Of a DNA stretch of 64,000 bases, positions 715 to 61,199 are shown piece after piece. Position numbers and translations under genes: made by a program. The notes below the pieces were generated by a model. The model made no database searches. It saw only the letters and a program-made list of their open reading frames with translations, and was not told where the DNA came from. The stretch comes from Isurus oxyrinchus (Eukaryota), in the NCBI GenBank assembly GCA_026770705.1, contig JANJGN010000013.1:61442001-61506000 (forward strand). The letters run 5' to 3'. Position 1 is the stretch's first letter. Each line of letters begins with the position of its first letter.

Positions 715-833
715 GGCAGGATGGCCCAGTGGTCTAAGTCACCAAACTCAAGAGTTGACTTTCTTTTCCTTGCAACGGCCTGGTGAATGCTCGTCCCTTT
801 CTCGGGGCGTGGGTTCAAATCCCCCTCCTGACA
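715..833 (+). pseudogene. tRNA-Leu(CAA) pseudogene, class C
   Basis: D and anticodon stems disrupted (CCAAA/GCTCG); T4 in intron at 764-767; A and B boxes retained. Confidence 0.85.
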
Positions 834-1827
834 ATACTTTTTCAAATACTCTCGCCAGCCTACATTTCCTGCCAGCCTCTCCTGAATTTTGCACCTACCA
901 CGTTTTACCACTTCAACTCTATTTACGCCTCAATACAAACACAGGTGACGCCTCCACAACCATGTCCATCACACACAAAACTTTACATGTTATATGCCTC
1001 ATGCATCAAATCACACTTCTCACACAATCAAGACCCAAACTGCAAACACAACACTCTGAGCAAACTGCATTTATACCTAGCTCCTTGCTGCATTCCACAT
1101 TGCATTCTAGGACTGCATCTTGCAATGCCATGGCGTACATTGCTTTTTCTCAAAATCAGGCCAACAGTTTCGAACAATGCCACTTCTACACAAAAACAAC
1201 TCAGTTCAACTCCCTTACTTTGGTAAGTACTTGCAAGGAAATCAGTGTCTTTAACATTCCAACTCATCCCCGGATGTGAAGCACATTACTGACCAATGAG
1301 ATGAGTTTGAATGCTGGGCCTTTCAGGTGGTAATGTTCAGAGTAATGCCATTGGCCAGGGGCACAGGGGCTGCAAGTTACCTTCATTCAATTCCAATATT
1401 GGGAGCTGCTGCTCATTGACTGGTCTTCAGCCGTTGCAGGTCCATCACGTTAATGTCATGAAAAGAAAGTCATGTGAATGAGAGGCTGAAATATCCGCTT
1501 GGAAGGATTATGTCTTACTGCCGTGTTTTTTGAAGGACTTGTGTTCCAATGGCAACTGTGTTGCTTGCATTTGGTCAAACTGAATGCCAAAATGTGTCTC
1601 AAAAAATGATGTGTGCTGCAAGGTGGAAAAATGACTGTTGATGAATAAAAGCTGTGAGTCTAAAGGTTGTTTATGGAGCAGGAAAGTAGAATTTTGTCAC
1701 TGCCTGATAAATCAAGCATGAGCAATTGATGGTTGTGCTTTGTCACTGCACAAGAGACAACGGTGTGCTCCAGTTCAGTTAGTGTACAGAATATGGAGCA
1801 CATATCAACAGAATTAAACAACAACTT

Positions 1828-1946
1828 GTCAGGATAGCTAAGTGGTCTAAGGTACCAGACTCAAAGAATGTGATTCCTTTCCTTGCAATGGCTTGGTGAA
1901 TTCTGATTCTTTTCTAGGGGTGTGGGTTCAAATCCTGCTACTGACA
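1828..1946 (+). pseudogene. tRNA-Leu(CAA) pseudogene, class B
   Basis: TAGCTAAG...GGTACC; TTCTGATTCTTTTCT with T4 at 1910-1913; altered T stem and acceptor (CCTGCTACTGAC). Confidence 0.85.
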
Positions 1947-2942
1947 TTAATTTTTCAAAAGCTCTCGCCAGCTTACATTTCCTGCCAGCCTCTCCTGAAA
2001 TTTGCGCCTGCCACATTTTACCGCTTCAACGCTATTTACGCCTCAATACAAACACAAGTTACGTCTCCACAACCATGTCCTTCACACACAAAACTTTACA
2101 TGTAATATGCCTCATGCATCAAATCGCACTTCTCACACAATCAAGACCCAAACTGCAAACACAACACTCTGAGCAAATTGCATTTATACCTAGCTCCTGG
2201 CTGCATTCCACATTGCATTCTAGGACTGCATCTTTCAATGCCATGACGTACACTGCTTTTTCTCAAAACCAGGCCAACTGTTTCAAACAATGCCACTTCT
2301 TCTACACAAAAACAACTCACTTCAACTCCCTTACTTTGGTAAGTACTAGCAAGGAAATCAGTGTCTTTAACATTCCAACTCATCCCCGGATGTGAAGCAC
2401 ATTACTGACCAATGAGATGCCTTTGAATGCTGAGCCTTTCAGGTGGTAATATTCAGAGTATTAGCTTTGGCCAGGGGCACAGGGGCTACAAATTCCCTTC
2501 GTTCAATTCCAATATTGGGAGCTGCAGCTCGTTGACTGATCTGTAGCTGTCGCAGGTCCATCACATTAATGTCATGAAAAGAAGTCATGTGAATGAGAGG
2601 CTGAAATGTCCGCTTTGAAGGAGTATGTCTTAATGCCGTGCTTTTTGAAGGACTTGTGTTCCAATGGCAACTGTATTGCTTGTGTTTGGTCAAGCTGGAC
2701 GCCAAAATGTGTTTCAGAAAATGATGCGTGCTGCAAGGTGGTAAAACGGCTGTTGATGAATGACAGCTGTGAGTCTGAAGGCTGTGTGTGGAGCAGGAAA
2801 GTAGAATTTTGTCACTGCCTGTTAAATCAAGCACGAGCAATTGATGGTTGTGCTTTGTCACTGCACAAGAGACAACGGTGTGCTCCAGTTCAGTTAGTGT
2901 ACAGAATATGGAGCACACAACAACAACATCAGACAACAACTT

Positions 2943-3061
2943 GTCAGGATGGCCGAGTGGTCTAAGGCGCCAGACTCAAGGAGTGTGATTCCTTTCCTTG
3001 CAATGGCTTGGTGAATTCTGGTCCCTTTCTAGGGGCGTGGGTTCAAATCCCACTCCTGACA
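2943..3061 (+). tRNA. tRNA-Leu-CAA: tRNA-Leu(CAA), intron-containing (intron 2981-3015), intact, class A
   Basis: Acceptor GTCAGGA/TCCTGAC+A, D stem GCC/GGC, anticodon stem CCAGA/TCTGG with loop CT-CAA-G^T, type II variable arm CCCT/AGGG, T arm GTGGG-TTCAAAT-CCCAC. The 5' exon matches the vertebrate Leu-CAA sequence as I know it. TTTT terminator 6 nt downstream. Confidence 0.95.
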
Positions 3062-3066
3062 TTAAC

Positions 3067-3070
3067 TTTT
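3067..3070 (+). terminator. RNA Pol III T4 terminator (representative; present after most copies)
   Basis: ...CCTGACA-TTAAC-TTTT-C directly after the gene. Confidence 0.8.
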
Positions 3071-4057
3071 CAAATGCTCTCGCCAGCTTACATTTCCTGC
3101 CAGCCTCTCCTGAAATTTGCTCCTGCCACGTTTTACCACTTCAACGCTATTTACGCCTCAATACAAACACAAGTTACGCCTCCACAACCATGTCCATCAC
3201 ACACAAAACTTTACATGTTATATGCCTCATGCATCAAATCACACTTCTCACACAATCAATACCCAAACTGCAAACACAACACTCTGAGCAAACTGCATTT
3301 ATACCTAGCTCCTTGCTGCATTCCACATTGTATTCTAGGACTGCATCGTTCAATGCCATGGGGTACACTGCTGTTTCTCAAACCCAGGCCAACTGTTTCG
3401 AACAATGCCACTTCCTGTACACAAAAACAACTCACTTCAACTCCCTTAATTTGGTAAGTACTTGCAAGGAAATCAGTGTCTTTAACATTCCAACTCATCC
3501 CCGGATGTGAAGCACATTACTGACCAATGAGATGCCTTTGAATGCTGGGCCTTTCAAGTGCTAATGTTCAGAGTAATGCCATTGGCCAGGGGCACAGGGG
3601 CTGCAAATTCCGTTCGATCAATTCCAATATTGGGAGCTGCTGCTCATTGACTGATCTTCAGCCATCGCAAGTCCATCACGTTAATGTCATGAAAAGAAAG
3701 TCATGTGAATTAGAGGCTGAAATGTCCGCTTGGAAGGATTATGTCTTACTGCCATGTTTTTTGAAGGACTTGTGTTCCAATGGCAACTGTGTTGCTTGCA
3801 TTTGGTCAAACTGAATGCCAAAATGTGTCTCAAAAAATGATGTGTGCTGCAAGGTGGTAAAATGACTGTTGATGAATAAAAGCTGTGAGTCTAAAGGTTG
3901 TTTATGGAGCAGGAAAGTAGAATTTTGTCACTGCCTGTTAAGTCAAGCATGAGCAATTGATGGTTGTGCTTTGTCACTGCACAAGAGACAACGGTGTGCT
4001 CCAGTTCAGTTAGTGTACAGAATTTGCAGCACACATCAACCAATTATTTAGCAACTT

Positions 4058-4176
4058 GTCAGGATGGCCCAGTGGTCTAAATCACCAAACTCAATAGTTG
4101 ATTTTCTTTTCCTTGCAACAGCCTGGTGAATGCTCATCCCTTTCTCGGGGCGTGGGTTCAAATCCCCCTCCTGACA
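4058..4176 (+). pseudogene. tRNA-Leu(CAA) pseudogene, class C
   Basis: Disrupted D and anticodon stems; ATTTTCTTTT in intron. Confidence 0.85.
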
Positions 4177-5173
4177 ATGCTTTTTCAAATGCTCTCGCCA
4201 GCCTACATTTCCTGCCAGCCTCTCCTGAATTTTGCACCTACCACGTTTTACCACTTCAACTCTATTTACGCCTCAATACAAACACAGGTGACGCCTCCAC
4301 AACCATGTCCATCACACACAAAACTTTACATGTTATATGCCTCATGCATCAAATCACACTTCTCACACAATCAAGACCCAAACTGCAAACACAACACTCT
4401 GAGCAAACTGCATTTATACCTAGCTCCTTGCTGCATTCCACATTGTATTCTAGGACTGCATCGTTCAATGCCATGGGGTACACTGCTGTTTCTCAAACAC
4501 AGGCCAACAGTTTCAAACAATGCCACTTCTTCTACACAAAAACAACTCAGTTCAAGTCTCTTACTTTGGTAAGTACTAGCAAGGAAATCAGTGTCTTTCA
4601 CATTCCAACTCATCCCCGGATGTGAAGCACATTACTGACCAATGAGATGAGTTTGAATGCTGGGCCTTTCAGGTGCAAATGTTCAGATTAATGCCATTGG
4701 CCAGGGGCACAGGGGCTGCAAATTCCCATCATTCAATTCCAATATTGGGAGCTGCTGCTCATTGACTGATCTTCAGCCATCGCAGGTCCATCACGTTAAT
4801 GTCATGAAAAGAAAGTCATGTGAATGAGAGGCTGAAATGTCCGCTTTGAAGGATTATGTCTCACTGCTGTGTTTTTTGAAGGACTTGTGTTCCAATGGCA
4901 ACTGTGTTGCTTGCAGTTGGTCAAACTGAACGCCATAATGTGTCTCATAAAATGATGTGTGCTGCAAGGTGGTAAAACGGCTGTTGATGAATAAGAGCTG
5001 TGAGTCTGAAGGTTGTCTGTGGAGCAGGAAAGGAGAATTTTGTCACTGCCTGTTAAATCAAGCATGAGCAATTGATGGTTGTGCTTTGTCACTACACAAG
5101 AGACAACGGTGTGCTCCAGTTCAGTTAGTGTACAGAATATGGAGCACATATCAACAAAATTAAACAACAACTT

Positions 5174-5292
5174 GTCAGTATAGCTAAGTGGTCTAAGGTA
5201 CCAGACTCAAGGAATGTGATTCCTTTCCTTGCAATGGCTTGGTGAATTCTGATTCCTCTCTAGGGGTGTGGGTTCAAATCCTGCTACTGACA
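5174..5292 (+). pseudogene. tRNA-Leu(CAA) pseudogene, class B
   Basis: Class B substitutions; this copy lacks the internal T4 (ATTCCTCTCT) and has GTCAGTA, which pairs with TACTGAC. Confidence 0.8.
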
Positions 5293-6286
5293 TTAATTTT
5301 TCAAATGCTCTTGCCAGCTTACATTTCCTGCCAGCCTCTCCTGAAATTTGCTCCTGCCACATTTTACCGCTTCAACGCTATTTACGCCTCAATACAAACA
5401 CAAGTTACGTCTCCACAACCATGTCCATCACACACAAAACTTTACATGTTATATGCCTCATGCATCAAATCACACTTCTCACACAATCAAGACCCAAACT
5501 GCAAACACACCACTCTGAGCAAACTGCATTTATACCTAATTCCTTGCTGCATTCCACATTGCATTCTAGGACTGCATCTTTCAATGCCATGGCATACACT
5601 GATTTTTCTCAAAACCAGGCCAACAGTTTCGAACAATGCCACTTCAACACAAAAACAACTCAGTTCAAGTCCCTTACTTTGGTAAGTACTTGCAAGGAAA
5701 TCAGTGTCTTTCACATTCCAACTCATCCCCGGATGTGAAGCACATTACTGACCAATGAAATGAGTTTGAATGCTAGGCCTTTCAGGTGCTAATGTTCAGA
5801 TTAATGCCATTGGCCAGGGGCACAGGGGCTGCAAATTCCCTTCATTCAATTCCAATATTGGGAGCTGCTGCTCATTGACTGGTCTTCAGCCATCGCAGGT
5901 CCATCACGTTAATGTCATGAAAAGAAAGTCATGTGAATGAGAGGCTGAAATGTCCGCTTTGAAGGATTATGTCTCACTGCTGTGTTTTTTGAAGGACTTG
6001 TGTTCCAATGGCAACTGTGTTGCTTGCAGTTGGTCAAACTGAACGCCATAATGTGTCTCATAAAATGATGTGTGCTGCAAGGTGGTAAAACGGCTGTTGA
6101 TGAATAAGAGCTGTGAGTCTGAAGGTTGTCTGTGGAGCAGGAAAGGAGAATTTTGTCACTGCCTGTTAAATCAAGCATGAGCAATTGATGGTTGTGCTTT
6201 GTCACTGCACAAGAGACAACGGTGTGCTCCAGTTCAGTTAGTGTACAGAATATGGAGCACATATCAACAAAATTAAACAACAAATT

Positions 6287-6405
6287 GTCAGGAAGGCCGA
6301 GTGGTCTAAGGTGCCAGACTCAAGGAGTGTGATTCCTTTCCTTGCAACGGCTTGGTGAGTTCTGGTCCCTTTCTAGGGGCGTGGGTTCAAATCCCACTCC
6401 TGACA
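6287..6405 (+). tRNA. tRNA-Leu-CAA: tRNA-Leu(CAA), class A, probably impaired (U8>A, C25>U)
   Basis: GTCAGGAAGGCCGAG: invariant U8 / A-box T lost; sits behind a B-type leader. Confidence 0.6.
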
Positions 6406-7402
6406 TTAACTTTTCAAATGCTCTCGCCAGCTTACATTTCCTGCCAGCCTCTCCTGAAATTTGCTCCTGCCACGTTTTACCACTTCAATGCTATTTACGC
6501 CTCAATACAAACACAAGTTACGCCTCCACAACCATGTACATCACACACAAAACTTTACATGTTATATGCCTCATGCATCAAATCACACTTCTCACACAAT
6601 CAAGACCCAAACTGCAAACACAACACTCTGAGCAAATTGCATTTATACCTAGCTCCTTGCTGCATTCCACATTGTATTCTAGGACTGCATCGTTCAATGC
6701 CATGGGGTACACTGCTGTTTCTCAAACCCAGGCCAACTGTTTCGAACAATGCCACTTCCTGTACACAAAAACAACTCACTTCAACTCCCTTAATTTGGTA
6801 AGTACTTGCAAGGAAATCAGTGTCTTTAACATTCCAACTCATCCCCGGATGTGAAGCACATTACTGACCAATGAGATGCCTTTGAATGCTGGGCCTTTCA
6901 GGTGCTAATGTTCAGAGTAATGCCATTGGCCAGGGGCACAGGGGCTGCAAATTCCGTTCGTTCAATTCCAATATTGGGAGCTGCTGCTCATTGACTGATC
7001 TTCAGCCATCGCAGGTCCATCACGTTAATGTCATGAAAAGAAAGTCATGTGAATGAGAGGCTGAAATGTCCGCTTGGAAGGATTATGTCTTACTGCCGTG
7101 TTTTTTGAAGGACTTGTGTTCCAATGGCAACTGTGTTGCTTGCATTTGGTCAAACTGAATGCCAAAATGTGTCTCATAAAATGATGTGTGCTGCAAGGTG
7201 GTAAAATGACTGTTGATGAATAAAAGCTGTGAGTCTGAAGGTTGTCTGTGGAGCAGGAAAGTAGAATTTTGTCACTGCCTGTTAAATCAAGCACGAGCAA
7301 TTGATGGTTGTGCTTTGTCACTGCACAAGAGACAACGGTGTGCTCCAGTTCAGTTAGTGTACAGAATATGGAGCACACAACAACAACATCAAACAACAAC
7401 TT

Positions 7403-7521
7403 GTCAGGATGGCTGAGTGGTCTAAGGTGCCAGCCTCAAGGAGTGTGATTCCTTTCCTTGCAACGGCTTGGTGAATTCTGGTCCCTTTCTAGGGGCGTGG
7501 GTTCAAATCCCACTCCTGACA
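7403..7521 (+). tRNA. tRNA-Leu-CAA: tRNA-Leu(CAA), class A, probably impaired
   Basis: GGCTGAG, GGTG and CCAGC: two D-stem wobbles and an anticodon-stem mismatch. Confidence 0.6.
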
Positions 7522-8517
7522 TTAACTTTTCAAATGTTCTCGCCAGCTTACATTTCCTGCCAGCCTCTCCTGAAATTTGCTCCTGCCATATTTTACCACT
7601 TCAACGCTATTTACGCCTCAATACAAACACAAGTTACGCCTCCACAACCATGTCCATCACACACAAAACTTTACATGTCATATGCCTCATGCATCAAATC
7701 ACACTTCTCACACAATCAAGACCCAAACTGCAAACACACCACTCTGAGCAAATTGCATTTATACCTAGCTCCTTGCTGCATTCCACATTGCATTCTAGGA
7801 CTGCATCTTTCAATGCCATGGCGTACACTGCTGTTTCTCAAACCCAGGCCAACTGTTTCAAACAATGCCACTTCTTCTACACAAAAACAACTCACTTCAA
7901 CTCCCTTACTTTGGTAAGTACTAGCAAGGAAATCAGTGTCTTTAACATTCCAACTCATCCCCGGATGTGAAGCACATTACTGACCAATGAGATGCCTTTG
8001 AATGCTGAGCCTTTCAGGTGGTAATATTCAGAGTATTAGCTTTGGCCAGGGGCACAGGGGCTGCAAATTCCCTTCGTTCAATTCCAATGTTGGGAGCTGC
8101 TGCTCGTTGACTGAGCTGTAGCCGTCGCAGGTCCATCACATTAATTTCATGAAAAGAAGTCATGTGAATGAGAGGCTGAAATGTCCGCTTTGAAGGAGTA
8201 TGTCTTAATGCCGTGTTTTTTGAAGGACTTGTGTTCCAATGGCAACTGTATTGCTTGTGTTTGGTCAAGCTGGACGCCAAAATGCGTCTCAGAAAATGAT
8301 GCGTGCTGCAAGATGGTAAAACGGCTGTTGATGAATGACAGCTGTGAGTCTGAAGGCTGTGTGTGGAGCAGGAAAGTAGAATTTTGTCACTGCCTGTTAA
8401 ATCAAGCACGAGCAATTGATGGTTGTGCTTTGTCACTGAACAAGAGACAACGGTGTGCTCCAGTTCAGTTAGTGTACAGAATATGGAGCACACAACAACA
8501 ACATCAAACAACAACTT

Positions 8518-8636
8518 GTCAGGATGGCCGAGTGGTCTAAGGCGCCAGACTCAAGGAGTGTGATTCCTTTCCTTGCAACAGCTTGGTGAATTCTGGTCCC
8601 TTTCTAGGGGCGTGGGTTCAAATCCCACTCCTGACA
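8518..8636 (+). tRNA. tRNA-Leu-CAA: tRNA-Leu(CAA), intron-containing, intact
   Basis: Exons identical to the 2943 copy; TTTT terminator. Confidence 0.95.
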
Positions 8637-9632
8637 TTAACTTTTCAAATGCTCTCGCCAGCTTACATTTCCTGCCAGCCTCTCCTGAAATTTGCTCCTG
8701 CCACGTTTTACCACTTCAACGCTATTTACGCCTCAATACAAACACAAGTTACGCCTCCACAACCATGTACATCACACACAAAACTTTACATGTTATATGC
8801 CTCATGCATCAAATCACACTTCTCACACAATCAAGACCCAAACTGCAAACACACCACTCTGAGCAAACTGCATTTATACCTAGCTCCTTGCTGCATTCCA
8901 CATTGTATTCTAGGACTGCATCGTTCAATGCCATGGGGTACACTGCTGTTTCTGAAACCCAGGCCAACTGTTTCAAACAATGCCACTTCCTCTACACAAA
9001 AACAACTCACTTCAACTCCCTTAATTTGGTAAGTACTTGCAAGGAAATCAGTGTCTTTCACATTCCAACTCATCCCCGGATGTGAAGCACATTACTGACC
9101 AATGAGATGCCTTTGATTGCTGGGCCTTTCTGGTGCTAATGTTCAGAGTAATGCCATTGGCCAGGGGCACAGGGGCTGCAAATTCCATTAGTTCAATTCC
9201 AATATCGGGAGCTGCTGCTCATTGACTGATCTTCAGCCATCGCAGGTCCATCACATTAATGTCATGAAAAGAAAGTCATGTGAATGAGAGGCTGAAATGT
9301 CCGCTTGGAAGGATTATGTCTTACTGCCATGTTTTTTGAAGGACTTGTGTTCCAGTGGCAACTGTGTTGCTTGCATTTGGTCAAACTGAATGCCAAAATG
9401 TGTCTCAAAAAATGATGTGTGCTGCAAGGTGGAAAAATGACTGTTGATGAATAAAAGCTGTGAGTCTAAAGGTTGTTTATGCAGCAGGAAAGTAGAATTT
9501 TGTCACTGCCTGTTAAGTCAAGCATGAGCAATTGATGGTTGTGCTTTGTCACTGCACAAGAGACAACGGTGTGCTTCAGTTCAGTTAGTGTACAGAATTT
9601 GCAGCACACATCAACCAATTAGTTAGCAACTT

Positions 9633-9751
9633 GTCAGGATGGCCCAGTGGTCTAAATCACCAAACTCAATAGTTGATTTTCTTTTCCTTGCAACAGCCTG
9701 GTGAATGCTCATCCCTTTCTCGGGGCGTGGGTTCAAATCCCACTCCTGACA
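9633..9751 (+). pseudogene. tRNA-Leu(CAA) pseudogene, class C
   Basis: Class C substitutions; intronic T4 runs. Confidence 0.85.
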
Positions 9752-10748
9752 ATGCTTTTTCAAATGCTCTCGCCAGCCTACATTTCCTGCCAGCCTCTCC
9801 TGAATTTTGCACCTACCACGTTTTACCACTTCAACTCTATTTACGCCTCAATACAAACACAGGTGACGCCTCCACAACCATGTCCATCACACACAAAACT
9901 TTACATGTTATATGCCTCATGCATCAAATCACACTTCTCACACAATCAAGACCCAAACTGCAAACACAACACTCTGAGCAAACTGCATTTATACCTAGCT
10001 CCTTGCTGCATTCCACATTGTATTCTAGGACTGCATCGTTCAATGCCATGGGGTACACTGCTGTTTCTCAAACACAGGCCAACTGTTTCAAACAATGCCA
10101 CTTCTTCTACACAAAAACAACTCAGTTCAAGTCCCTTACTTTGGTAAGTACTAGCAAGGAAATCAGTGTCTTTCACATTCCAACTCATCCCCGGATGTGA
10201 AGCACATTACTGACCAATGAGATGAGTTTGAATGCTGGGCCTTTCAGGTGCTAATGTTCAGATTAATGCCATTGGCCAGGGGCACAGGGGCTGCAAATTC
10301 CCATCATTCAATTCCAATATTGGGAGCTGCTGCTCATTGACTGGTCTTCAGCCATCGCAGGTCCATCACGTTAATGTCATGAAAAGAAAGTCATGTGAAT
10401 GAGAGGCTGAAATGTCCGCTTTGAAGGATTATGTCTCACTGCTGTGTTTTTTGAAGGACTTGTGTTCCAATGGCAACTATGTTGCTTGCAGTTGGTCAAA
10501 CTGAACGCCATAATGTGTCTCATAAAATGATGTGTGCTGCAAGGTGGTAAAACGGCTGTTGATGAATAAGAGCTGTGAGTCTGAAGGTTGTCTGTGGAGC
10601 AGGAAAGGAGAATTTTGTCACTGCCTGTTAAATCAAGCATGATCAATTGATGGTTGTGCTTTGTCACTACACAAGAGACAACGGTGTGCTCCAGTTCAGT
10701 TAGTGTACAGAATATGGAGCACATATCAACAAAATTAAACAACAACTT

Positions 10749-10867
10749 GTCAGGATAGCTAAGTGGTCTAAGGTACCGGACTCAAGGAATGTGATTCCTT
10801 TCCTTGCAATGGCTTGGTGAATTCTGATTCTTTTCTAGGGGTGTGGGTTCAAATCCTGCTACTGACA
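10749..10867 (+). pseudogene. tRNA-Leu(CAA) pseudogene, class B
   Basis: Class B substitutions; T4 in variable arm. Confidence 0.85.
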
Positions 10868-11864
10868 TTAATTTTTCAAATGCTCTCGCCAGCTTACATT
10901 TCCTGCCAGCCTCTCCTGAAATTTGCGCCTGCCACATTTTACCGCTTCAACGCTATTTACGCCTCAATACAAACACAAGTTACGTCTCCACAACCATGTC
11001 CATCACACACAAAACTTTACATTCAATATGCCTCATGCATCAAATCGCACTTCTCACACAATCAAGACCAAAACTGCAAACACACCACTCTGAGCAAATT
11101 GCATTTATACCTAGCTCCTTGCTGCATTCCACATTGCATTCTAGGACTGCATCGTTCAATGCCATGAGGTACACTGCTTTTTCTCAAACCCAGGCCAACT
11201 GTTTCAAACAATGCCACTTCCTGTACACAAAAACAACTCAGTTCAACTCCCTTACTTTGGTAAGTACTAGCAAGGAAATCAGTGTCTTTAACATTCCAAC
11301 TCATCCCCGGATGTGAAGCACATTACTGACCAATGAGATGCCTTTGAATGCTGGGCCTTTCAAGTGCTAATGTTCAGAGTAATGACATTGGCCAGGGGCA
11401 CAGGGGCTGCAAATTCCGTTCGTTCAATTCCAATATTGGGAGCTGCTGCTCATTGACTGATCTTCAGCCATCGCAGGTCCATCACGTTAATGTCATGAAA
11501 AGAAAGTCATGTGAATGAGAGGCTGAAATGTCCGCTTGGAAGGATTATGTCTTACTGCCGTGTTTTTTGAAGGACTTGTGTTCCAATGGCAACTGTGTTG
11601 CTTGCATTTGGTCAAACTGAATGCCAAAATGTGTCTCAAAAAATGATGTGTGCTGCAAGGTGGTAAAATGACTGTTGATGAATAAAAGCTGTGAGTCTGA
11701 AGGTTGTCTGTGGAGCAGGAAAGTAGAATTTTGTCACTGCCTGTTAAATCAAGCACGAGCAATTGATGGTTGTGCTTTGTCACTGCACAAGAGACAACGG
11801 TGTGCTCCAGTTCAGTTAGTGTACAGAATATGGAGCACACAACAACAACATCAAACAACAACTT

Positions 11865-46528: not shown

Positions 46529-47523
46529 TTAATTTTTCAAATGCTCTCGCCAGCTTACATTTCCTGCCAGCCTCTCCTGAAATTTGCACCTACCACGTTT
46601 TACCACTTCAACGCTATTTACGCCTCAATACAAACACAAGTTACGTCTCCACAACCATGTCCATCACACACAAAACTTTACATGTAATATGCCTCATGCA
46701 TCAAATCGCACTTCTCACACAATCAAGACCCAAACTGCAAACACAGCACTCTGACCAAATTGCATTTATACCTAGCTCCTTGCTGCATTCCACATTGCAC
46801 TCTAGGACTGCATCTTTCAATGCCATGACGTACACTGCTTTTTCTCAAAACCAGGCCAACTGTTTCAAACAATGCCACTTCTTCTACACAAAAACAACTC
46901 ACTTCAACTCCCTTACTTTGGTAAGTACTTGCAAGGAAATCAGTGTCTTTAACATTCCAACTCATCCCCAATGTGAAGCACATTACTGACCAATGAGATG
47001 CCTTTGAATGCTGGGCCTTTCAGGTGCTAATGTTCAGAGTAACGCCATTGGCCAGGGGCACAGGGGCTGCAAATTCCGTTCGTTCAATTCCAATATTGGG
47101 AGCTGCTGCTCGTTGACTGATCTTCAGCCATCGCAGGTCCATCACGTTAATGTCATGAAAATAAAGTCATGTGAATGAGATGCTGAAATGTCCGCTTGGA
47201 AGGATTATGTCTTACTGCCGTGTTTGTTGAAGGACTTGTGTTCCAATGGCAACTGTGTTGCTTGCATTTGGTCAAACTGAATGCCAAAATGTGTCTCAAA
47301 AAATGATGTGTGCTGCAAGGTGGTAAAATGACTGTTGATGAATAAAAGCTGTGAGTCTAAAGGTTGTTTATGGAGCAGGAAAGTAGAATTTTGTCACTGC
47401 CTGTTAAATCAAGCACGAGCAATTGATGGTTGTGCTTTGTCACTGCACAAGAGACAACGGTGTGCTCCAGTTCAGTTAGTGTACAGAATTTGCAGCACAC
47501 ATCAACCAATTAAATAGCAACTT

Positions 47524-47642
47524 GTCAGGATGGCCCAGTGGTTTAAGTCACTCAACTCAAGAGTTAACTTTCTTTTCCTTGCAACAGCCTGGTGAATGCT
47601 CATCCCTTTCTAGGGGCGTGGGTTCAAATCCCCCTCCTGACA
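47524..47642 (+). pseudogene. tRNA-Leu(CAA) pseudogene, class C
   Basis: Near-identical to the 39734 copy. Confidence 0.85.
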
Positions 47643-48636
47643 ATGCTTTTTCAAATGCTCTCACCAGCCTACATTTCCTGCCAGCCTCTCCTGAATTTTG
47701 TACCTACCACGTTTTACCACTTCAACTCTATTTACGCCTCAATACAAACACAGGTGACGCCTCCACAACCATGTCCATCACACACAAAACTTTACATGTT
47801 ATATGCCTCATGCATCAAATCACACTTCTCACGCAATCAAGACCCAAACTGCAAACACAACACTCTGAGCAAACTGCATTTATACCTAGCTCCTTGCTGC
47901 ATTCCACATTGCATTCTAGGACTGCATCTTTCAATGCCATGGCGTACACTGTTTTTTCTCAAAATCAGGCCAACAGTTTCGAACAATGCCACTTCTACAC
48001 AAAAACAACTCACTTCAACTCCCTTACTTTGGTAAGTACTTGCAAGGAAATCAGTGTCTTTAACATTCCAACTCATCCCCGGATGTGAAGCACATTACTG
48101 ACCAATGAAATGAGTTTGAATGCTGGGCCTTTCAGGTGGTAATGTTCAGATTAATGCCATTGGCCAGGGGCACAGGGGCTGCAAATTCCCTTCATTCAAT
48201 TCCAATATTGGGAGCTGCTGCTCATTGACTGGTCTTCAGCCGTTGCAGGTCCATCACGTTAATGTCATGAAAAGAAAGTCATGTGAATGAGAGGCTGAAA
48301 TGTCCGCTTTGAAGGATTATGTCTCACTGCTGTGTTTTTTGAAGGACTTGTGTTCCAATGGCAACTGTGTTGCTTGCAGTTGGTCAAACTGAACGCCATA
48401 ATGTGTCTCATAAAATGATGTGTGCTGCAAGGTGGTAAAACGGCTGTTGATGAATAAAAGCTGTGAGTCTGAATGTTGTTTGTGGAGCAGGAAAGTAGAA
48501 TTTTGTCACTGCCTGTTAAATCAAGCATGAGCAATTGATGGTTGTGCTTTGTCACTGCACAAGAGACAACGGTGTGCTCCAGTTCAGTTAGTGTACAGAA
48601 TATGGAGCACATATCAACAGAATTAAACAACAACTT

Positions 48637-48755
48637 GTCAGGATAGCTAAGTGGGCTAAGGTAACAAACTCAAGGAATGTGATTCCTTTCCTTGCAATGG
48701 CTTGGTGAATTCTGATTCTTTTCTAGGGGTGTGGGTTAAAATCCTGCTACTGAGA
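48637..48755 (+). pseudogene. tRNA-Leu(CAA) pseudogene, class B, B box mutated
   Basis: Same variant as the 35275 and 40847 copies. Confidence 0.88.
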
Positions 48756-49751
48756 TTAATTTTTCAAATGCTCTCGCCAGCTTACATTTCCTGCCAGCCT
48801 CTCCTGAAATTTGCGCCTGCCACATTTTACCGCTTCAACGCTATTTACGCCTCAATACAAACACAAGTTACGTCTCCACAACCATGTCCATCACACACAA
48901 AACTTTACATGTAATATGCCTCATGCATCAAATCGCACTTCTCACACAATCAAGACCCAAACTGCAAACACAACACTCTGAGCAAATTGCATTTATACCT
49001 AGCTCCTTGCTGCATTCCACATTGTATTCTAGGACTGCATCGTTCAATGCCATGACGTACACTGCTTTTTCTCAAAACCAGGCCAACTGTTTCAAACAAT
49101 CACACTTCTTCTACACAAAAACAACTCACTTCAACTCCCTTACTTTGGTAAGTACTAGCAAGGAAATCAGTGTCTTTAACATTCCAACTCATCCCCGGAT
49201 GTGAAGCACATTACTGACCAATGAGATGCCTTTGAATGCTGAGCCTTTCAGGTGGTAATATTCAGAGTATTAGCTTTGGCCAGGGGCACAGGGGCTACAA
49301 ATTCCCTTCGTTCAATTCCAATATTGGGAGCTGCTGCTCGTTGACTGATCTGTAGCCGTCGCAGGTCCATCACATTAATGTCATGAAAAGAAGTCATGTG
49401 AATGAGAGGCTGAAATGTCCGCTTTGAAGGAGTATGTCTTAATGCCGTGTTTTTTGAAGGACTTGTGTTCCAATGGTAACTGTATTGCTTGTGTTTGGTC
49501 AAGCTGGACGCCAAAATGTGTCTCAGAAAATGATGTGTGCTGCAAGGTGGTGAAACGGCCGTTGATGAATGAAAGCTGTGAGTCTGAAGGCTGTGTGTGG
49601 AGCAGGAAAGTAGAATTTTGTCACTGCCTGTTAATTCAAGCACGAGCAATTGATGGTTGTGCTTTGTCACTGCACAAGAGACAACGGTGTGCTCCAGTTC
49701 AGTTAGTGTACAGAATATGGGGCACACAACAACAACATCAAACAACAACTT

Positions 49752-49870
49752 GTCAGGATGGCCGAGTGGTCTAAGGCGCCAGACTCAAGGAGTGTGATTC
49801 CTTTCCTTGCAACGGCTTGGTGAATTCTGGTCCCTTTCTAGGGGCGTGGGTTCAAATCCCACTCCTGACA
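49752..49870 (+). tRNA. tRNA-Leu-CAA: tRNA-Leu(CAA), intron-containing, intact
   Basis: Exons identical to the 2943 copy; TTTT terminator. Confidence 0.95.
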
Positions 49871-50866
49871 TTAACTTTTCAAATGTTCTCGCCAGCTTAC
49901 ATTTCCTGCCAGCGTCTCCTGAAATTTGCTCCTGCCACGTTTTACCACTTCAACGCCATTTACGCCTCAATACAAACACAAGTTACGCCTCCACAACCAT
50001 GTCCATCACACACAAAACTTTACATGTTATATGCCTCATGCATCAAATCACACTTCTCACACAATCAAGACCCAAACTGCAAACACACCACTCTGAGCAA
50101 ACTACATTTATACCTCGCTCCTTGCTGCATTCCACATTGTATTCTAGGACTGCATCGTTCAATGCCATGGGGTACACTGCTGTTTCTCAAACCCAGGCCA
50201 ACTGTTTCGAACAATGCCACTGCCTGTACACAAAAACAACTCACTTCAACTCCCTTACTTTGGTAAGTACTTGCAAGGAAATCAGTGTCTTTAACATTCC
50301 AACTCATCCCCGGATGTGAAGCACATTACTGACCAATGAGATGCCTTTGAATGCTAGGCCTTTCAGGTGCTAATGTTCAGAGTAATGCCATTGGCCAGGG
50401 GCACAGGGGCTGCAAATTCCGTTCGTTCAATTCCAATATTGGGAGCTGCTGCTCGTTAACTGATCTTCAGCCATCGCATTTCCATCACGTTAATGTCATG
50501 AAAAGAAAGTCATGTGAATGAGAGGCTGCAATGTCCGCTTGGAAGGATTATGTCTTACTGCCGTGTTTTTTGAAGGACTTGTGTTCCAATGGCAACTGTG
50601 TTGCTTGCATTTGGTCAAACTGAATGCCAAAATGTGTCTCAAAAAATGATGTGTGCTGCAAGGTGGTAAAATGACTGTTGATGAATAAAAGCTGTGAGTC
50701 TAAAGGTTGTTTATGGAGCAGGAAAGTAGAATTTTGTCACTGCCTGTTAAATCAAGCACGAGCAATTGATGGTTGTGCTTTGTCACTGCACAAGAGACAA
50801 CGGTGTGCTTCAGTTCAGTTAGTGCACAGAATTTGCAGCACACATCAACCAATTAAATAGCAACTT

Positions 50867-50985
50867 GTCAGGATGGCCCAGTGGTCTAAGTTAACAAACT
50901 CAAGAGTTGACTTTCTTTTCCTTGCAACAGCCTGGTGAATGCTCATCCCTTTCTAGGGGCGTGGGTTCAAATCCCCCTCCTTACA
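50867..50985 (+). pseudogene. tRNA-Leu(CAA) pseudogene, class C
   Basis: Class C plus an acceptor change (CCTTACA). Confidence 0.85.
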
Positions 50986-51980
50986 ATGCTTTTTCAAATG
51001 CTCTCGCCAGCCTACATTTCCTGCCAGCCTCTCCTGAATTTTGCACCTACCACGTTTTACCACTTCAACTCTATTTACGCCTCAATACAAACACAGGTGA
51101 TGCCTCCACAACCATGTCCATCACACACAAAACTTTACATGTTATATGCCTCATGCATCAAATCACACTTCTCACACAATCAAGACCCAAACTGCAAACA
51201 CAGCACTCTGAGCAAACTGCATTTATACCTAGCTCCTTGCTGCATTCCACATTGCATTCTAGGACTGCATCTTTCAATGCCATGGCGTACACTGCTTTTT
51301 CTCAAAACCAGGCCAACAGTTTCGAACAATGCCACTTCTACACAAAAACAACTCAGTTCAACTCCCTTACTTTGGTAAGTACTTGCAAGGAAATCAGTGT
51401 CTTTAACATTCCAACTCATCCCCGGATGTGAAGCACATTACTGACCAATGAGATGAGTTTGAATGCTGGGCCTTTCAGGTGGTAATGCTCAGAGTAATGC
51501 CATTGGCCAAGGGCACAGGGGCTGCAAATTGCCTTCATTCAATTCCAATATTGGGAGCTGCTGCTCATTGACTGGTCTTCAGCCGTTGCAGGTCCATCAC
51601 GTTAACGTCATGAAAAGAAAGTCATTTGAATGAGAGGCTGAAATGTCCGCTTTGAAGGATTATGTCTCACTGCTCTGTTTTTTGAAGGACTTGTGTTCCA
51701 ATGGCAACTGTGTTGCTTGCAGTTGGTCAAACTGAACCGCCATAATGTGTCTCATAAAATGATGTGTGCTGCAAGGTGGTAAAACTGCTGTTGATGAATA
51801 AAAGCTGTGAGTCTGAAGGTTGTTTGTGGAGCAGGAAAGTAGAATTTTGTCACTGCCTGTTAAATCAAGCATGAGCAATTGATGGTTGTGCTTTGTCACT
51901 GCACAAGAGACAATGGTGTGCTCCAGTTCAGTTAGTGTACAGAATATGGAGCACATATCAACAGAATTAAACAACAACTT

Positions 51981-52099
51981 GTCTGGATGGCCAAGTGCTC
52001 TAAGGTGCCATACTCAAGGAGTGTGATTCCTTTCCTTGCAAAGGCTTGGTGAATTCTGGTTCCTTTCTAGGGGTGTGGCCTCAAATCCCACTCCTGACA
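51981..52099 (+). pseudogene. tRNA-Leu(CAA) pseudogene (decayed A-like)
   Basis: GTCTGGA, AAGTGCTC, GGCCTCAAAT: acceptor, A box and B box all mutated. Confidence 0.88.
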
Positions 52100-53096
52100 T
52101 TAACTTTTCAAATGCTCTCGCCAGCTTACATTTCCTGCCAGCCTCTCCTGAAATTTGCTCCTGCCACATTTTACCACTTCAACGCCATTTACGCCTCAAT
52201 ACAAACACAAGTTACGCCTCCACAACCATGTCCATCACACACAAAACTTTACAATTAATATGCCTCATGCATCAAATCTCACTTCTCACACAATCAAGAC
52301 CCAAACTACAAACACACCACTCTGAGCAAACAGCATTTATACCTAGCTCCTTGCTGCATTCCACATTGCATTCTAGGACTGCATTGTTCAATGCCATGGG
52401 GTACACTGCTGTTTCTCAAACCCAGGCCAACTGTTTCAAACAATGCCACTTCTTCTACAGAAAAACAACTCACTTCAACTCCCTTATTTTGGTAAGTACT
52501 TGCAAGGAAATCAGAGACTTTAACATTCCAACTCATCCCTGGATGTGAAGCAGGTTACTGACAGGTGAGATGCCTTTGAATGCTGAGCCTTTCAGGTGGT
52601 AATATTGAGAGTATTACCTTTGGCCAGGGGCACAGGGGCTGCAAATTACCTTCGTTCAATTCCAATATTGGGAGCTGCTGCTCGTTGACTGATCTGTACC
52701 TGTTGCAGGTCCATCACATTAATGTCATGAAAAGAAAGTCATGGGAATGAGCGGCTGAAATGTCCGCTTTGAAGGAGTATGTCTTACTGCCGTGCTTTTT
52801 GAAGGCCTTGTGTTCCAATGGCAACTGTATTGCTTATGTTTGGTCAAGCTAGACGCCAAAATGTGTCTCAGAAAATGATGCGTGCTGCAAGGTGGTAAAA
52901 TGACTGTTGATGAATAAAAGCTGTGAGTCTGAAGGTTGTTTGTGGAGCAGGAAAGTAGAATTTTGTCACTGCCTGTTAAATCAAGCACGAGCAATTGATA
53001 GTTGTGCTTTGTCACTGCACAAGAGACAACGGTGTACTCCAGTTCAGTTAGTGTACAGAATATGGAGCACACAACAACAACATCAAATGACAACTT

Positions 53097-53215
53097 GTCA
53101 GGATGGCCGAGTGGTCTAAGGTGCCAGACTCAAGGAGTGTGATTCCTTTCCTTGAAACGGCTTGGTGAATTCTGGTCCCTTTCTAGGGGCGTGGGTTCAA
53201 ATCCCACTCCTGACA
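53097..53215 (+). tRNA. tRNA-Leu-CAA: tRNA-Leu(CAA), near-intact (C25>U)
   Basis: Single exon change; TTTT terminator. Confidence 0.85.
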
Positions 53216-54211
53216 TTAACTTTTCAAATGCTCTCGCCGGCTTACATTTCCTGCCAGCCTCTCCTGAAATTTGCTCCTGCCACATTTCACCACTTCAACG
53301 CTATTTACGCCTCAATACAAACACAAGTTACGCATCCACAACCATGTCCATCACACACAAAACTTTACATTTAATATGCCTCATGCTTCAAATCACACTT
53401 CTCACACAATCAAGACCCAAACTGCAAACACACCTCTCTGAGCAAACTGCATTTATACCTAGCTCCTAGCTGCATTCCACATTGCATTCTAGGACTGCAT
53501 CTTTCAATGCCATGGCGTACACTGCTGTTTCTCAAAACCAGGACAACTGCTTAAAACAATGCCACTTCTTCTACACAAAAACAACTCACTTCAACTCCCT
53601 TACTTTGGTAAGTACTTGCAAGGAAATCAGAGACTTCAACATTCCAACTCATCCCGGGATGTGAAGCACATTACTGACAGGTGAGATGCCTTTGAATGCT
53701 GAGCCTTTCAGGTGGTAATATTCAGAGTATTACCTTTGGCCAGGGGCACAGGGGCTGCAAATTCCCTTCGTTCAATTCCAATATTGGGAGCTGCTGCTCG
53801 TTGACTGATCTGTAGCCGTCGCATGTCCATCACATTAATGTCATGAAAATAAAGTCATGTGAATGAGAGGCTGAAATGTCCGCTTTGAAGGAGTATGTCT
53901 CACTGCCGTGTTTTTTGAAGGACTTGTGTTCCAATGGCAACTGTATTGCTTGTGTTTGGTCAAGCTGGATGCCAAAATGTGTCTCAAAAAATGATGTGTG
54001 CTGCAAGGTGGTAAAACTGTTGTTGAAGAAAAAAGCTGTGAGTCTAAAGGTTGTTTGTGGAGCACGAAAGTAGAATTTTGTCACTGCCTGTTAAATCAAG
54101 CACGAGCAATTGATGGTTGTGCTTTGTCACTGCACAAGAGACAACGGTGTGCTCCAGTTCAGTTAGTGTACAGAATTTGCAGCACATATCAACCAAAATG
54201 AAAAACAACTT

Positions 54212-54330
54212 GTCAGGATAGCTAAGTGGTCTAAGGCGCCAGATGCAGCAAATGTGATTCTTTTCCTTACAACGGCCTGGTGAATGCTCGTCCTTTTCTA
54301 GGGGCGTGGGTTCAAATCCCCCTCCTGACA
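54212..54330 (+). pseudogene. tRNA-Leu pseudogene, class D (anticodon loop TGCAGC)
   Basis: B-like D arm, C-like 3' exon, altered anticodon loop, two internal T4 runs. Confidence 0.85.
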
Positions 54331-55318
54331 ATACTTTTTCAAACACTCTCGCCAGCCTACATTTCCTGCCAGCCTCTCCTGAAATTTGCTCCTGCCACGT
54401 TTTACCACTTCAACGCTATTTACGCCTCAATACAAACACAAGTGACGCCTCCACAACCATGTCCATCACACACAAAACTTTACATGTAATATGCCTCATG
54501 CATCAAATCACACTTCTCACACAATCAAGACCCAAACTGCAAACACACCACTCTGAGCAAACTACATTTATACCTAGCTCCTTGCTGCATTCCACATTGT
54601 ATTCTAGGACTGCATCTTTCAATGCCATGGGGTACACTGCTGTTTCTCAAACCCAGGCCAACTGTTTCAAACAATACCACTTCCTCTACACAAAAACAAC
54701 TCACTTCAACTCCCTTAATTTGGTAAGTACTTGCAAGGAAATCAGTGTCTTTAACATTCCAATTCATCCCCGGATGTGAAGCACATTACTGACCAAGGAG
54801 ATGCCTTTGAATGCTGGGCCTTTCAGGTGCTAATGTTCAGAGTAATGCCATTGGCCAGGGGTAAAGGGGCTGCAAATTCCGTTCGTTCAATTCCAATATT
54901 GGGAGCTGCTGCTCATTGACTGATCTTCAGCCATCGCAGGTCCATCACGTTAATGTCATGAAAAGAAAGTCATGTGAATGAGAGGCTGAAATGTCCGCTT
55001 GGAAGGATTAAGACTTACTGCCGTGTTTTTTGAAGGACTTGTGTTCCAATGGCAACTGTATTGCTTGTGTTTGGTCAAGCTGGATGCCAAAATGTGTCTC
55101 AAAAAATGATGTGTGCTGCAAGGTGGTAAAACTGTTGTTGAAGAAAAAAGCTATGAGTCTAAAGGTTGTTTGTGGAGCACGAAAGTAGAATTTTGTCACT
55201 GCCTGTTAAATCAAGCACGATGGTTGTGCTTTGTCTCTGCACAGGAGACAACAGTGTGCTCCAGTTCAGCTGGTGTACAGAATTTGCAGCACATCTCAAC
55301 CAAAATGAAAAACAACTT

Positions 55319-55423
55319 GTCAGGATAGCTGAGTGATCTAAGGTGCCAAACTCTTTTCCTTGCAACGGCCTGGTGAATGCTTGTCCCTTTCTAGGGGCGT
55401 GGGTTCAAATCCCACTCCTGACA
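55319..55423 (+). pseudogene. tRNA-Leu pseudogene, class D, 14-bp deletion through anticodon and 5' splice site
   Basis: ...CCAAACTC|TTTTCCTTG...; 105 bp instead of 119. Confidence 0.88.
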
Positions 55424-55672
55424 ATACTTTTTCAAATACTCTCGCCAGCTTACATTTCCAGCCAGCCTCTCCTTAAATTTGCTCCTGCCACGTTTTACCA
55501 CTTCAACGCTATTTACGCCTCAATACAAACACAAGTGACGCCTCCACAACCATGTCCATCACACACAAAACTTTACATGTAATATGCCTCATGCATCAAA
55601 TCACACTTCTCACACAATCAAGACCCAAACTGCATACACACCACTCTGAGCAAACTACATTTATACCTAGCT

Positions 55673-56369
55673 GACCTGCGGTCTGTCCGCAAGAATGACC
55701 CAAACCTCCCTGTCGCTTGCCATTTTAACACTCCACCCTGCTCTCTTGCCCACATGTCTGTCCTTGGCTTGCTGCATTGTTCCAGTGCAGCCCAACGCAA
55801 ACTGGAGGAACAACACCTCATCTTCCGACTAGGCACCTTACAGCCTTCCGGACTGAATATTGAATTCAACAACTTTAGGTCGTGAGCTCCCTCCCCCATC
55901 CCCACCCCATTTCTGTTTCCCCCTTTCTTTTTTTTTCCAATAAATTATATAGATTTTTCTTTTCCCACCTATTTCCATTATTTTTAAATATTTTAAAATC
56001 TTTTATGCTCTCCCCACCCCCATTAGAGCTATACCTTGAGTGCCCTACCATCCATTCTTAATTAGCACATTCGTTTAGATAATATCACCAACTTTAACTT
56101 TAACACCTATGTGTTCTATTGTACCATTGTTGTTGACATCTTTTGATGATCTGCTTCTATCACTGCTTGTTTGTCCATACAACCACCTCTCTCTCTCTCT
56201 ATCTCTCCACCCCCCACACACACACCTTAAACCAGCTTATATTTCAACTTTTTCTTGGACTCGAACTCAAGTTCTGTCGAAGGGTCATGAGGACGCGAAA
56301 CGTCAACTCTTTTCTTCTCCGCCGATGCTGCCAGACCTGCTGAGTTTTTCCAGGCAATTCTGTTTTTGT
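55673..56369 (+). mobile_element. 5'-truncated Penelope-like retroelement insertion with 13-bp target-site duplication
   Basis: TSD TTTATACCTAGCT at 55660-55672 and 56370-56382. 55673-55885 encodes the GIY-YIG C-terminal part (LRSVRKNDPNLPVACHFN...EQHLIFRLGTLQPSGLNIEFNNFRS*). Hammerhead-like motif near the 3' end. Confidence 0.9.
56270..56308 (+). ncRNA. Minimal hammerhead-ribozyme-like motif in the Penelope 3' terminus (variant core)
   Basis: AGTT-CTGTCGA-A-GGGTC.ATGAG.GACGC-GAAA-CG-TC-AACT: stem I AGTT/AACT, core like CUGANGA...GAAA..UH, minimal stem III. Penelope-like elements are known to carry such motifs. Confidence 0.65.
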
Positions 56370-57128
56370 TTTATACCTAGCTCCTTGCTGCATTCCACAT
56401 TGTATTCTAGGACTGCATCTTTCAATGCCATGGGGTACACTGCTGTTTCTCAAACCCAGGCCAACTGTTTCAAACAATGTCACTTCTTTACACAAAAACA
56501 ACTCTGTTCAACTCCCTTAATTTGGTAAGTACTAGCAAGGAAATCAGTGTCTTTAACATTCCAACTCATCCCCGGTGTGAAGCACATTACTGACCAATGA
56601 GATGCCTTTGAATGCTGGGCCTTTCAGGTGCTAATGTTCAGAGTAATGCCATTGGCCAGTAACAAAGGGGCTGCAAATTCCGTTCGTTCAATTCTAATAT
56701 TGGGAGCTGCTGCTCATTGACTGATCTTCAGCCATCGCAGGTCCATCACGTTAATGTCATGAAAAGAAAGTCATGTGAATGAGAGGCTGAAATGTTCGCT
56801 TGGAAGGATTATGTCTTACTGCCGTGTTTTTTGAAGGACTTGTGTTCCAATGGCAACTGTATTGCTTGCATTTGGACAAGCTGGATGCCAAAATGTGTCT
56901 CAAAAAATGATGTGTGTTGCAAGGTGGTAAAATGACTGTTGATGAATAAAAGCTGTGAGTCTAAAGGTTGTTTATGGAGCTGGAAAGTAGAATTTTGGCA
57001 CTGCCTGTTAAATCAAGCATGAGCAATTGATGGTTGTGTTTTGTCACTGCACAAGAGACAACGGTGTGCTCCAGTTCAGTTAGTGTACAGAATATGGAGC
57101 ACATATCAACACTGTTAAACAACAACTT

Positions 57129-57247
57129 GTCAGGATAGCTAAGTGGTCTAAGGTGCCATACTCAAGGAGTGTGATTCCTTTCCTTATAATGGCTTGGTGA
57201 ATTCTGATTCTTTTCTAGGGGTGTGGGTTCAAATCCTGCTACTGACA
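57129..57247 (+). pseudogene. tRNA-Leu(CAA) pseudogene, class B
   Basis: Class B D arm and 3' exon; T4 in variable arm. Confidence 0.85.
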
Positions 57248-58243
57248 TTAATTTTTCAAATGCTCTCGCCAGCTTACATTTCCTGCCAGCCTCTCCTGAA
57301 ATTTGCTCCTGCCACATTTTACCACTTCAACGCTATTTACGCCTCAATACAAACACAAGTGACGCCTCCACAACCATGTCCATCACACACAAAACTTTAC
57401 ATTTAATATGCCTCATGCATCAAATCACACTTCTCACACAATCAAGACCCAAACTGCAAACACACCACTCTGAGCAAACCGCATTTATACCTAGCTCCTT
57501 GCTGCATTCCACATTGCATTCTAGGACTACATCTTTCAATGCCATGGGGTACACTGCTGTTTCTCAAACCCAGGCCAACTGTTTCAAACAATGCCACTTC
57601 TTCTACACAAAAACAACTCACTTCAACTCCCTTACGTTGGTAAGTACTTGCAAGGAAATCAGAGACTTTAACATTCCAACTCATCCCCGGATGTGAAGCA
57701 TATTACTGACCAATGAGATGCCTTTGAATGCTGGGCTTTTCAGGTGGCAATATTCGGAGTAATGCCATTGGCCAGGGGCACAGGGGCTGCAAATTCCCTT
57801 TGTTCAATTCCAATATTGGGAGCTGCTGCTCGTTGACTGATCTTCAGCCGCCGCACGTCCATCACGTTAATGTCATGAAAAGAAAGTCATGTGAATGAGA
57901 GGCTGAAATGTCCGCTTGGAAGGATTATGTCTTACTGCCGTGTTTTTTGAAGGACTTGTGTTCCAATGGCACGTGTGTTGCTTGCATTTGGTCAAGCTGG
58001 ACGCCAAAATGTGTCTCAAAAAATGATGTGTGCTGCAAGGTGGTAAAACTGTTGTTGAAGAAAAAAGCTGTGAGTCTAAAGGTTGTTTGTGGAGCACGAA
58101 AGTAGAATTTTGTCACTGCCTGTTAAATCAAGCACGAGCAATTGATGGTTGTGCTTTGTCACTGCACAAGAGACAACGGTGTGCTCCAGTTCAGTTAGTG
58201 TACAGAATTTGCAGCACATATCAACCAAAATGAAAAACAACTT

Positions 58244-58362
58244 GTCAGGATAGCTGAGTGGTCTAAGGTGCCAGATGCAATGAATGTGATTCTTTTCCTT
58301 GCAACGGCCTGGTGAATGCTCGTCCCTTTCTAGGGGCGTGGATTCAAATCCCCCTCCTGACA
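58244..58362 (+). pseudogene. tRNA-Leu pseudogene, class D
   Basis: CCAGATGCAAT loop, B box GGATTCAAAT, intronic T4. Confidence 0.85.
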
Positions 58363-60398: not shown

Positions 60399-60402
60399 CT
60401 AA

Positions 60403-61156: not shown

Positions 61157-61199
61157 ACCTTAAACTAGCTTATATTTCACCCCTCTCCTATTTTTACTT

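Follow-up and report, generated by a model that had tools for sequence, protein, structure and literature searches.

Why should nearly all the degenerate copies in a tandem array of tRNA genes carry, within the gene itself, a run of four T residues (T4), the terminator signal of RNA polymerase III (Pol III)? The question is raised by a 64,000-nt stretch of the genome of Isurus oxyrinchus (assembly GCA_026770705.1, contig JANJGN010000013.1, positions 61,442,001 to 61,506,000), which was analyzed as a whole and is called here the window. BLAST and the extraction of the individual copies show a head-to-tail array with a unit of ~1,115 bp and one tRNA-like gene per unit, always on the + strand. 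A preliminary description had proposed that the pseudogene classes of this array keep both promoter boxes and that their internal terminators make it a possible source of discrete truncated RNAs. In our reading, the T4 pattern is probably the result of two C>T changes at mutation hotspots, copied by the duplication of blocks of the classes defined below (C-B, or C-B-A), and not of selection for short RNAs. The locus is best regarded as a tRNA array under ordinary birth-and-death turnover, that is, as one more example of a familiar kind of locus.

Classes of tRNA-Leu(CAA) copies and their T runs

The array of intron-containing tRNA-Leu(CAA) genes and pseudogenes spans 350..62848 (+ strand, as are all features below; BLAST, copy extraction, Rfam). 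It holds 53 copies with starts from 715 to 59355, 52 of them of 119 nt and one of 105 nt, and two further degenerate copies at its ends (350-469 and the 3′ half at 62761-62848), neither of which has an internal T4. Thirty-eight of the 53 copies match the Rfam tRNA model RF00005, and the mean pairwise distance between units is 0.063. ARAGORN in bacterial mode found 0 genes in the window, this mode being uninformative for such an array. All 53 copies were sorted by rules of our own into classes A (21 copies), B (18), C (9), D (3), and E (2). Position-wise counts within the gene use the 52 copies of 119 nt, and unit-level counts use 50 of the 53 copies: copy 715 was left out (its upstream region is duplicated), and 55319 and 59355 are absent from the unit alignment.

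Class A contains the intact 119-nt genes, such as the one at 2943..3061 (Rfam, 52.1 bits), with exon 1 at nt 1-38, a 35-nt intron at nt 39-73, exon 2 at nt 74-119, the A box at nt 8-18, the B box at nt 98-108, and the anticodon CAA in 21/21 copies. These copies score 46-52.5 bits against RF00005 and are predicted to form a cloverleaf with a long variable arm, with no stem mismatch in 19 of the 21. Such genes have their intron one base beyond the anticodon on its 3′ side, and a C-G pair joins anticodon and intron; class A agrees with this, both in the place of the intron and in the pair C33-G71 (21/21). Both boxes are found in 20/21 copies and a proximal 3′ T4 or T5 in 18/21. By its predicted structure, promoter, and terminator, class A thus appears to be a eukaryotic intron-containing tRNA-Leu(CAA) gene.

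The other large classes depart from this structure to different degrees. Class C (e.g., 715..833, with both boxes kept) has lost the anticodon stem and has 5-7 stem mismatches, class D has 3-4, and class B (e.g., 1828..1946) has 1-4 in addition to G-U pairs. Because 8 of the 18 B copies have a single mismatch, some of them may partly fold. The broken cloverleaf identifies B, C, and D as putative pseudogenes. Altogether ~60% of the copies are degenerate, and two clades of them are interleaved with the intact genes. Copy 54212, of class D, looks like a mosaic, with B-like changes in its 5′ part and C-like changes in its 3′ part; it has the triplet CAG at the anticodon position, a damaged stem, and both of the T4 sites described next.

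An internal T4 is present in 9/9 copies of C, 3/3 of D, 17/18 of B, 1/21 of A, and 0/2 of E, i.e., in 29 of the 32 non-A copies. In C and D it lies in the intron at gene nt 50-53 and stems from the change C50T (764..767 in copy 715; 9/9 and 3/3), and five C copies have another at nt 45-48 (e.g., 4102-4105, next to 4107-4110). In B it lies in the variable arm at nt 83-86 and stems from C83T (e.g., 1910..1913; 17/18). The T4 made by C83T recurs in A copy 33045 (33127-33130) and in D copy 54212 (54294-54297). All the T4 coordinates cited in the preliminary description proved correct, including 55354-55357 in the 105-nt copy, as did the lack of T4 in copy 5174. This last copy (5174..5292) is a counterexample, a B copy without an internal T4 and with intact boxes; the degenerate copy at 51981..52099, with both boxes broken, and the one at 59355-59473 also lack T4. 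We found no description of pseudogene classes with internal T4 in tRNA arrays in the literature searched, most subscription journals being outside its scope.

The intact genes are themselves rich in T. The intron of class A contains TTTCCTT (nt 51-57; 2993..2999 in copy 2943), the precursor of the T4 of C and D, and the gene is followed by its downstream terminator, a T4 in the context C-TTTT-C (3067..3070). The change C124T turns this terminator into a T5 in 17/18 B, 9/9 C, 2/2 D, and 1/21 A copies among the units aligned. Three otherwise intact A copies (11865, 14096, and 31930) have it cut to T3; since the next T4 of the unit consensus starts ~70 nt beyond the gene end, these copies would be expected to yield long 3′ trailers.

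Origin and spread of the internal T4 runs

In the gene tree, classes B and C each form a clade, and the high frequency of T4 among non-A copies is explained by inheritance from two founder changes, C50T and C83T. Each is a single C>T change adjoining a T3 already present in the intact gene, so that the origin of each T4 takes one step. Five single changes can create a T4 in the A gene, all of them C>T, and the Cs in question have changed no more often than other non-CpG Cs (2/5 vs. 8/21, p = 1). In the spacer, a C that precedes TTT is a hotspot: the T allele is found at 4/8 such sites, compared with 22/205 other Cs (p = 0.009). All three Cs preceding TTT in the transcribed part have mutated. 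C124T is among these changes; in B, C, and D its sole effect is a longer normal terminator, and it truncates nothing. When 15-18 changes were simulated, a T4 arose in 19-36% of lineages; with the hotspot, T4 is expected in 1.3-1.9 of the six degenerate lineages, and it is observed in two. Independent gains of T4 are thus not above the mutation-only null.

The two founders were amplified together. A C copy is followed by a B copy in 8/9 cases (p = 0.00025), and the C-B-A block at 9633..11983 is near-identical to the one at 29698-32048; a second such pair is formed by 39734-42088 and 47524-49870. Nearest-neighbor distances between the units of these paired blocks are 0.001-0.006. The adjacency of C and B and the near-identity of the blocks indicate that the two founders spread jointly, and B, C, and D appear from their sequences to have spread by duplication of units or blocks. 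A fixed higher-order period was considered and rejected, the mean distance being flat (0.055-0.066) across offsets of 2-25 units.

Promoter boxes, diversity along the unit, and predicted RNAs

Retention of the promoter boxes was assessed with the A-box pattern TRGCNNARYGG of the preliminary description and with the consensus B box GGTTCRANTCC. The A-box pattern fits 20/21 copies of A, 16/18 of B, 9/9 of C, 2/3 of D, and 0/2 of E; the B-box pattern fits 21/21, 15/18, 9/9, 2/3, and 1/2, respectively. Both fit in all nine C copies, in 13/18 B, and in 1/3 D. The claim that the pseudogene classes keep both boxes therefore holds for C and for most of B but for just one D copy. The B box is intact in 26/30 B, C, and D copies. 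Over all classes, 51981 and 58244 must be added to the copies already listed as having a broken B box (35275, 40847, and 48637). The B copies with a dead B box form a subclade of three, i.e., one that was amplified.

There is little sign that the boxes were constrained once the classes had been founded. Among B, C, and D, non-CpG box sites are variable at 4/20 positions, compared with 21/52 in the rest of the exons (p = 0.17) and 141/860 in the spacer (p = 0.76). Changes private to B or to C affect 2/20 box sites and 10/83 other gene sites (p = 1, a test of low power). The preliminary description had offered as its own refutation that the boxes mutate like the rest of the gene: this is what is found after founding, and for the founders themselves the answer is less clear (P 0.01-0.07, see following).

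Within the unit, variation peaks at the gene together with its 20-nt leader. Variable sites amount to 13/18 in the leader vs. 26/125 just upstream (p = 3e-5), and to 23/52 in the exons outside the boxes vs. 198/860 in the spacer (p = 0.001). According to a study on tRNA genes, transcription-associated mutagenesis produces an excess of variation in the gene and the 20 nt upstream, C>T and G>A being the commonest changes (PMC6130373). We infer that the diversity peak of the array is the trace of old mutagenesis of this kind; the same peak could arise if the gene had a deeper genealogy than the spacer. Because fast divergence would require working boxes, the most diverged lineages would tend to be those that keep them. 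No ongoing mutagenesis was detected in the gene bodies of B and C, where singletons occur at the spacer rate (5/83 vs. 42/860, p = 0.6). The CpGs of the gene are kept at 72/84 positions in A and at 0/72 in B, all four having been lost in 18/18 B copies; hence methylation is suggested, and decay of this type points to a later silencing of B. The singleton rate and the loss of CpGs both indicate that most of the excess diversity is old. If transcription stopped at T4, class-private changes might thin out downstream of it, but no such pattern is seen, the changes being too few (for nt 1-53, 54-86, and 87-119, respectively, 5/45, 2/29, and 2/29 in B; 2/45, 0/29, and 1/29 in C).

Two other features of the diversity profile can be mentioned. 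At the CpGs at nt 12-13 and 26-27, class B has both bases changed (CG to TA), the first CpG in 18/18 copies and the second in 17/18, which is unusual for simple deamination. Diversity is lowest in a stretch that begins ~140 nt and ends ~60 nt before the gene (e.g., 2803-2883): it is 0.01-0.03 there, compared with a spacer mean of 0.06. This stretch is more uniform than the gene itself and may represent a regulatory or other element upstream of it or a hotspot of conversion.

Would transcription stop at the internal T4s? They have the context C-T4-C, as does the terminator of class A, and any transcription of these copies would therefore likely end in part at T4. In human cells, T4 terminates Pol III at 75%, 27%, and 18% with three different promoters (PMC5725217). 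A 2025 preprint reports that 4T is best at transcript release and that the polymerase is slowed locally by T runs in the anticodon loops of tRNA-Lys (10.1101/2025.10.17.683076). Likewise, TTTCCTT in the native 3′ flank of TRNAV18, a tRNA-Val gene, terminates human Pol III, and T3CT terminates <10% in vitro (PMC3141230). The variable arm of class A contains T3CT. Working A copies must thus already cross a T-rich tract, along which the classes differ by degree. Discrete products, as first proposed, are doubtful, both because of this tract and because of the 18-75% range in the human reporters. A search of sequencing runs listed no RNA set containing these sequences, a result that weighs neither for nor against their expression. 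Truncated RNAs from B and C remain plausible given the mechanism, the T4 context, and the boxes; a selected function for them is unlikely, and the idea of an array designed for such RNAs finds no support, the T4 gains being two one-step hotspot mutations.

The predicted truncated RNA of class B (nt 1-86; 10749..10834) would fold into a hairpin of ~80 nt with a U tail, pairing nt 1-25 with nt 54-80 (−26.2 kcal/mol, z −2.2). A second B fragment gives −24.3 kcal/mol (z −1.7), and nt 1-86 fold at −24 to −27 kcal/mol in 14/18 copies and at −18.4 in two. The same helix is already the minimum free energy structure of nt 1-86 of intact class A (−25.9), and hence it was inherited. Among 21 B alleles, 6 keep the ancestral helix, 2 break it, and 13 miss it. 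Two-sided changes occur in 0/28 pairs across the 18 B copies, which have few variable sites, so that the modeled structure does not seem to be held by compensatory change. The C fragment (nt 1-53) shows no fold (z +0.9 and +1.2).

Alternative explanations, array ends, and known systems

Several results weigh against explaining the pattern by mutation and duplication. The hotspot rests on eight sites and is weaker when both strands are counted (4/10 vs. 65/376, p = 0.08). That both amplified founders carry T4 has P 0.04-0.11 in simulations without the hotspot, and 0.07-0.16 with it (0.035-0.07 on minimal change counts). Both founders also kept both boxes; under random change this has P = 0.012 if 15 and 18 changes are assumed and P = 0.07 with the 8 and 12 common to all members. 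No other result speaks more strongly for the view of the preliminary description. In class C alone, 0/20 box sites are variable, compared with 9/52 exon sites (p = 0.055). Rare leader alleles are in excess in B and C (6/18 vs. 57/860, p = 0.002; p = 0.04 once three adjacent changes in one copy are merged), hinting at recent initiation in these classes. B alleles break the ancestral helix in 2 cases vs. 4.6 expected from type-matched random changes (P = 0.076; P = 0.0375 for the energy). All these tests are post hoc and concern one haplotype and few events.

These points can be read in three other ways. Mutant copies whose promoter is still live would produce misfolded pre-tRNA of full length and burden its processing; the lineages that persist and amplify might therefore be only those in which an internal terminator is present or the promoter is dead. 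Such a tolerance filter agrees with the presence of T4 (29) or of a broken or missing box (4) in 33/34 heavily degenerate copies, the exception being 5174, and with the T4 of both amplified lineages (P 0.04-0.16). However, T4 or a broken box is expected by chance in ~70-93% of lineages, so that finding it in 6/6 is unremarkable. Moreover, 5174 and the stem-damaged A copies 7403 and 27478 have survived with their boxes but without T4, T4 is leaky in the reporter data at hand (PMC5725217), and B and C were amplified as a single block; we consider this filter unlikely. The B and C units might instead be kept as landing sites for TFIIIC, as insulators or chromatin organizers, with RNA and T4 being irrelevant. 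The 26/30 intact B boxes and the box retention of the founders (P 0.01-0.07) would fit, but boxes are already provided every 1-3 kb by the 21 interspersed A copies, the rate of variation at box sites is that of the spacer, and the subclade with a dead B box was amplified, all of which leaves this role highly improbable.

A role for the RNAs themselves is hardly more probable. Class B would be an exapted Pol III gene for a hairpin RNA of ~85 nt ending at the variable-arm T4, and C would yield a ~50-nt RNA resembling a 5′ half. The fold of most B copies and its z scores, the sparing of the helix by B alleles, and the type 2 promoter in most B and all C copies speak for it. The inherited helix, the lack of two-sided changes, the collapse of the fold in two copies and of the B box in three, the unfolded C fragment, the loss of all gene CpGs in B, and the spacer-like singleton rate speak against it. 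Support for a functional B hairpin, which comes from folding models, is weak and post hoc. We give a very small chance to the specific version in which B is a new Pol III gene, where a C>T change would stop transcription before the B box and the 5′ two-thirds of the pre-tRNA would refold as a ~80-nt hairpin. If true, the 3′ arm of this hairpin, complementary to the 5′ end of tRNA-Leu(CAA), could regulate the array or its tRNA, and if class B is both expressed and conserved, it would represent a one-mutation route from a pre-tRNA to a hairpin RNA gene.

Hotspot mutation followed by block duplication remains our preferred explanation. Transcription-associated mutagenesis would diversify copies whose boxes still work; at the CTTT>TTTT hotspot, C50T and C83T would each create a T4 as a by-product; duplication of C-B(-A) blocks would copy the two T4-bearing founders through the array; and the later CpG decay of the methylation type in B points to silencing. 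If B or C copies still load Pol III, termination would be leaky, and the mixture of ~50-nt RNAs from C, ~85-nt RNAs from B, and read-through RNAs would probably be degraded. The array is then a natural record of the decay of a tRNA array, in which unconstrained paralogs show the mutation peak at gene and leader and the CTTT>TTTT bias makes terminator-like runs without selection. It also warns that a terminator in every pseudogene may be two events copied many times. Finally, its near-identical units, with one-base differences in T runs and class-diagnostic single-nucleotide polymorphisms, are a test bed for measuring termination at intragenic T4s. The diagnostic bases are A9, T12, A13, A79, and T81 in B and C13, T25, and A31 in C.

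The ends of the array are less regular. At its left end, a local duplication of 364 bp (228-941) holds the heavily decayed copy 350-469 just upstream of copy 715. One spacer contains an insertion of ~700 bp (55673-56369) that lies between the two copies of a 13-bp direct repeat (55660-55672 and 56370-56382). The insertion has no Pfam match, but it has a reading frame that matches a GIY-YIG-like frame (60403-60753) over the C-terminal part of the latter; it is probably a 5′-truncated Penelope-like retroelement. To the right of a gap of 100 N (59877-59976), fragments of the unit are mixed with pieces of the same retroelement (59977-61300, 61740-62170, and 63330-64000), with weak hits of these pieces to GIY-YIG (E 0.0018) and RVT_1 (E 0.086), both below the Pfam cut-off.

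Arrays of 5S genes in fish are reportedly also subject to birth-and-death. Among the systems described in the literature, the tRNA-miRNA units of murine gammaherpesvirus 68 resemble the predicted class B product in having a type 2 promoter, a hairpin product, and an end at a T run (PMC3141230). In the virus the hairpin follows the tRNA-like part, whereas the predicted B hairpin would be the refolded 5′ two-thirds of the pre-tRNA and would end before the B box. The T run of the human tRNA-Lys anticodon loop also lies inside a type 2 Pol III gene, but that tRNA is functional, whereas here the runs are in the intron or variable arm of broken copies (10.1101/2025.10.17.683076). The excess of variation at tRNA genes was described between species or alleles (PMC6130373); in the present array a comparable excess is found between paralogous units. 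Shark genomes reportedly have many clustered intron-containing tRNA loci, as here; that survey counts loci above a score cut-off and, as far as its available text goes, does not cover pseudogene classes or internal terminators (bioRxiv 10.1101/2025.06.08.657570). The tRNA-Cys and Ser/Tyr clusters of Arabidopsis share with the window head-to-tail units that each hold a single Pol III gene, copies that vary and have mispaired stems, and a copy number that changes by whole units (PMC10701932). The present array differs from these clusters in that ~60% of its copies are degenerate and in the presence, among the intact genes, of two clades that carry T4.

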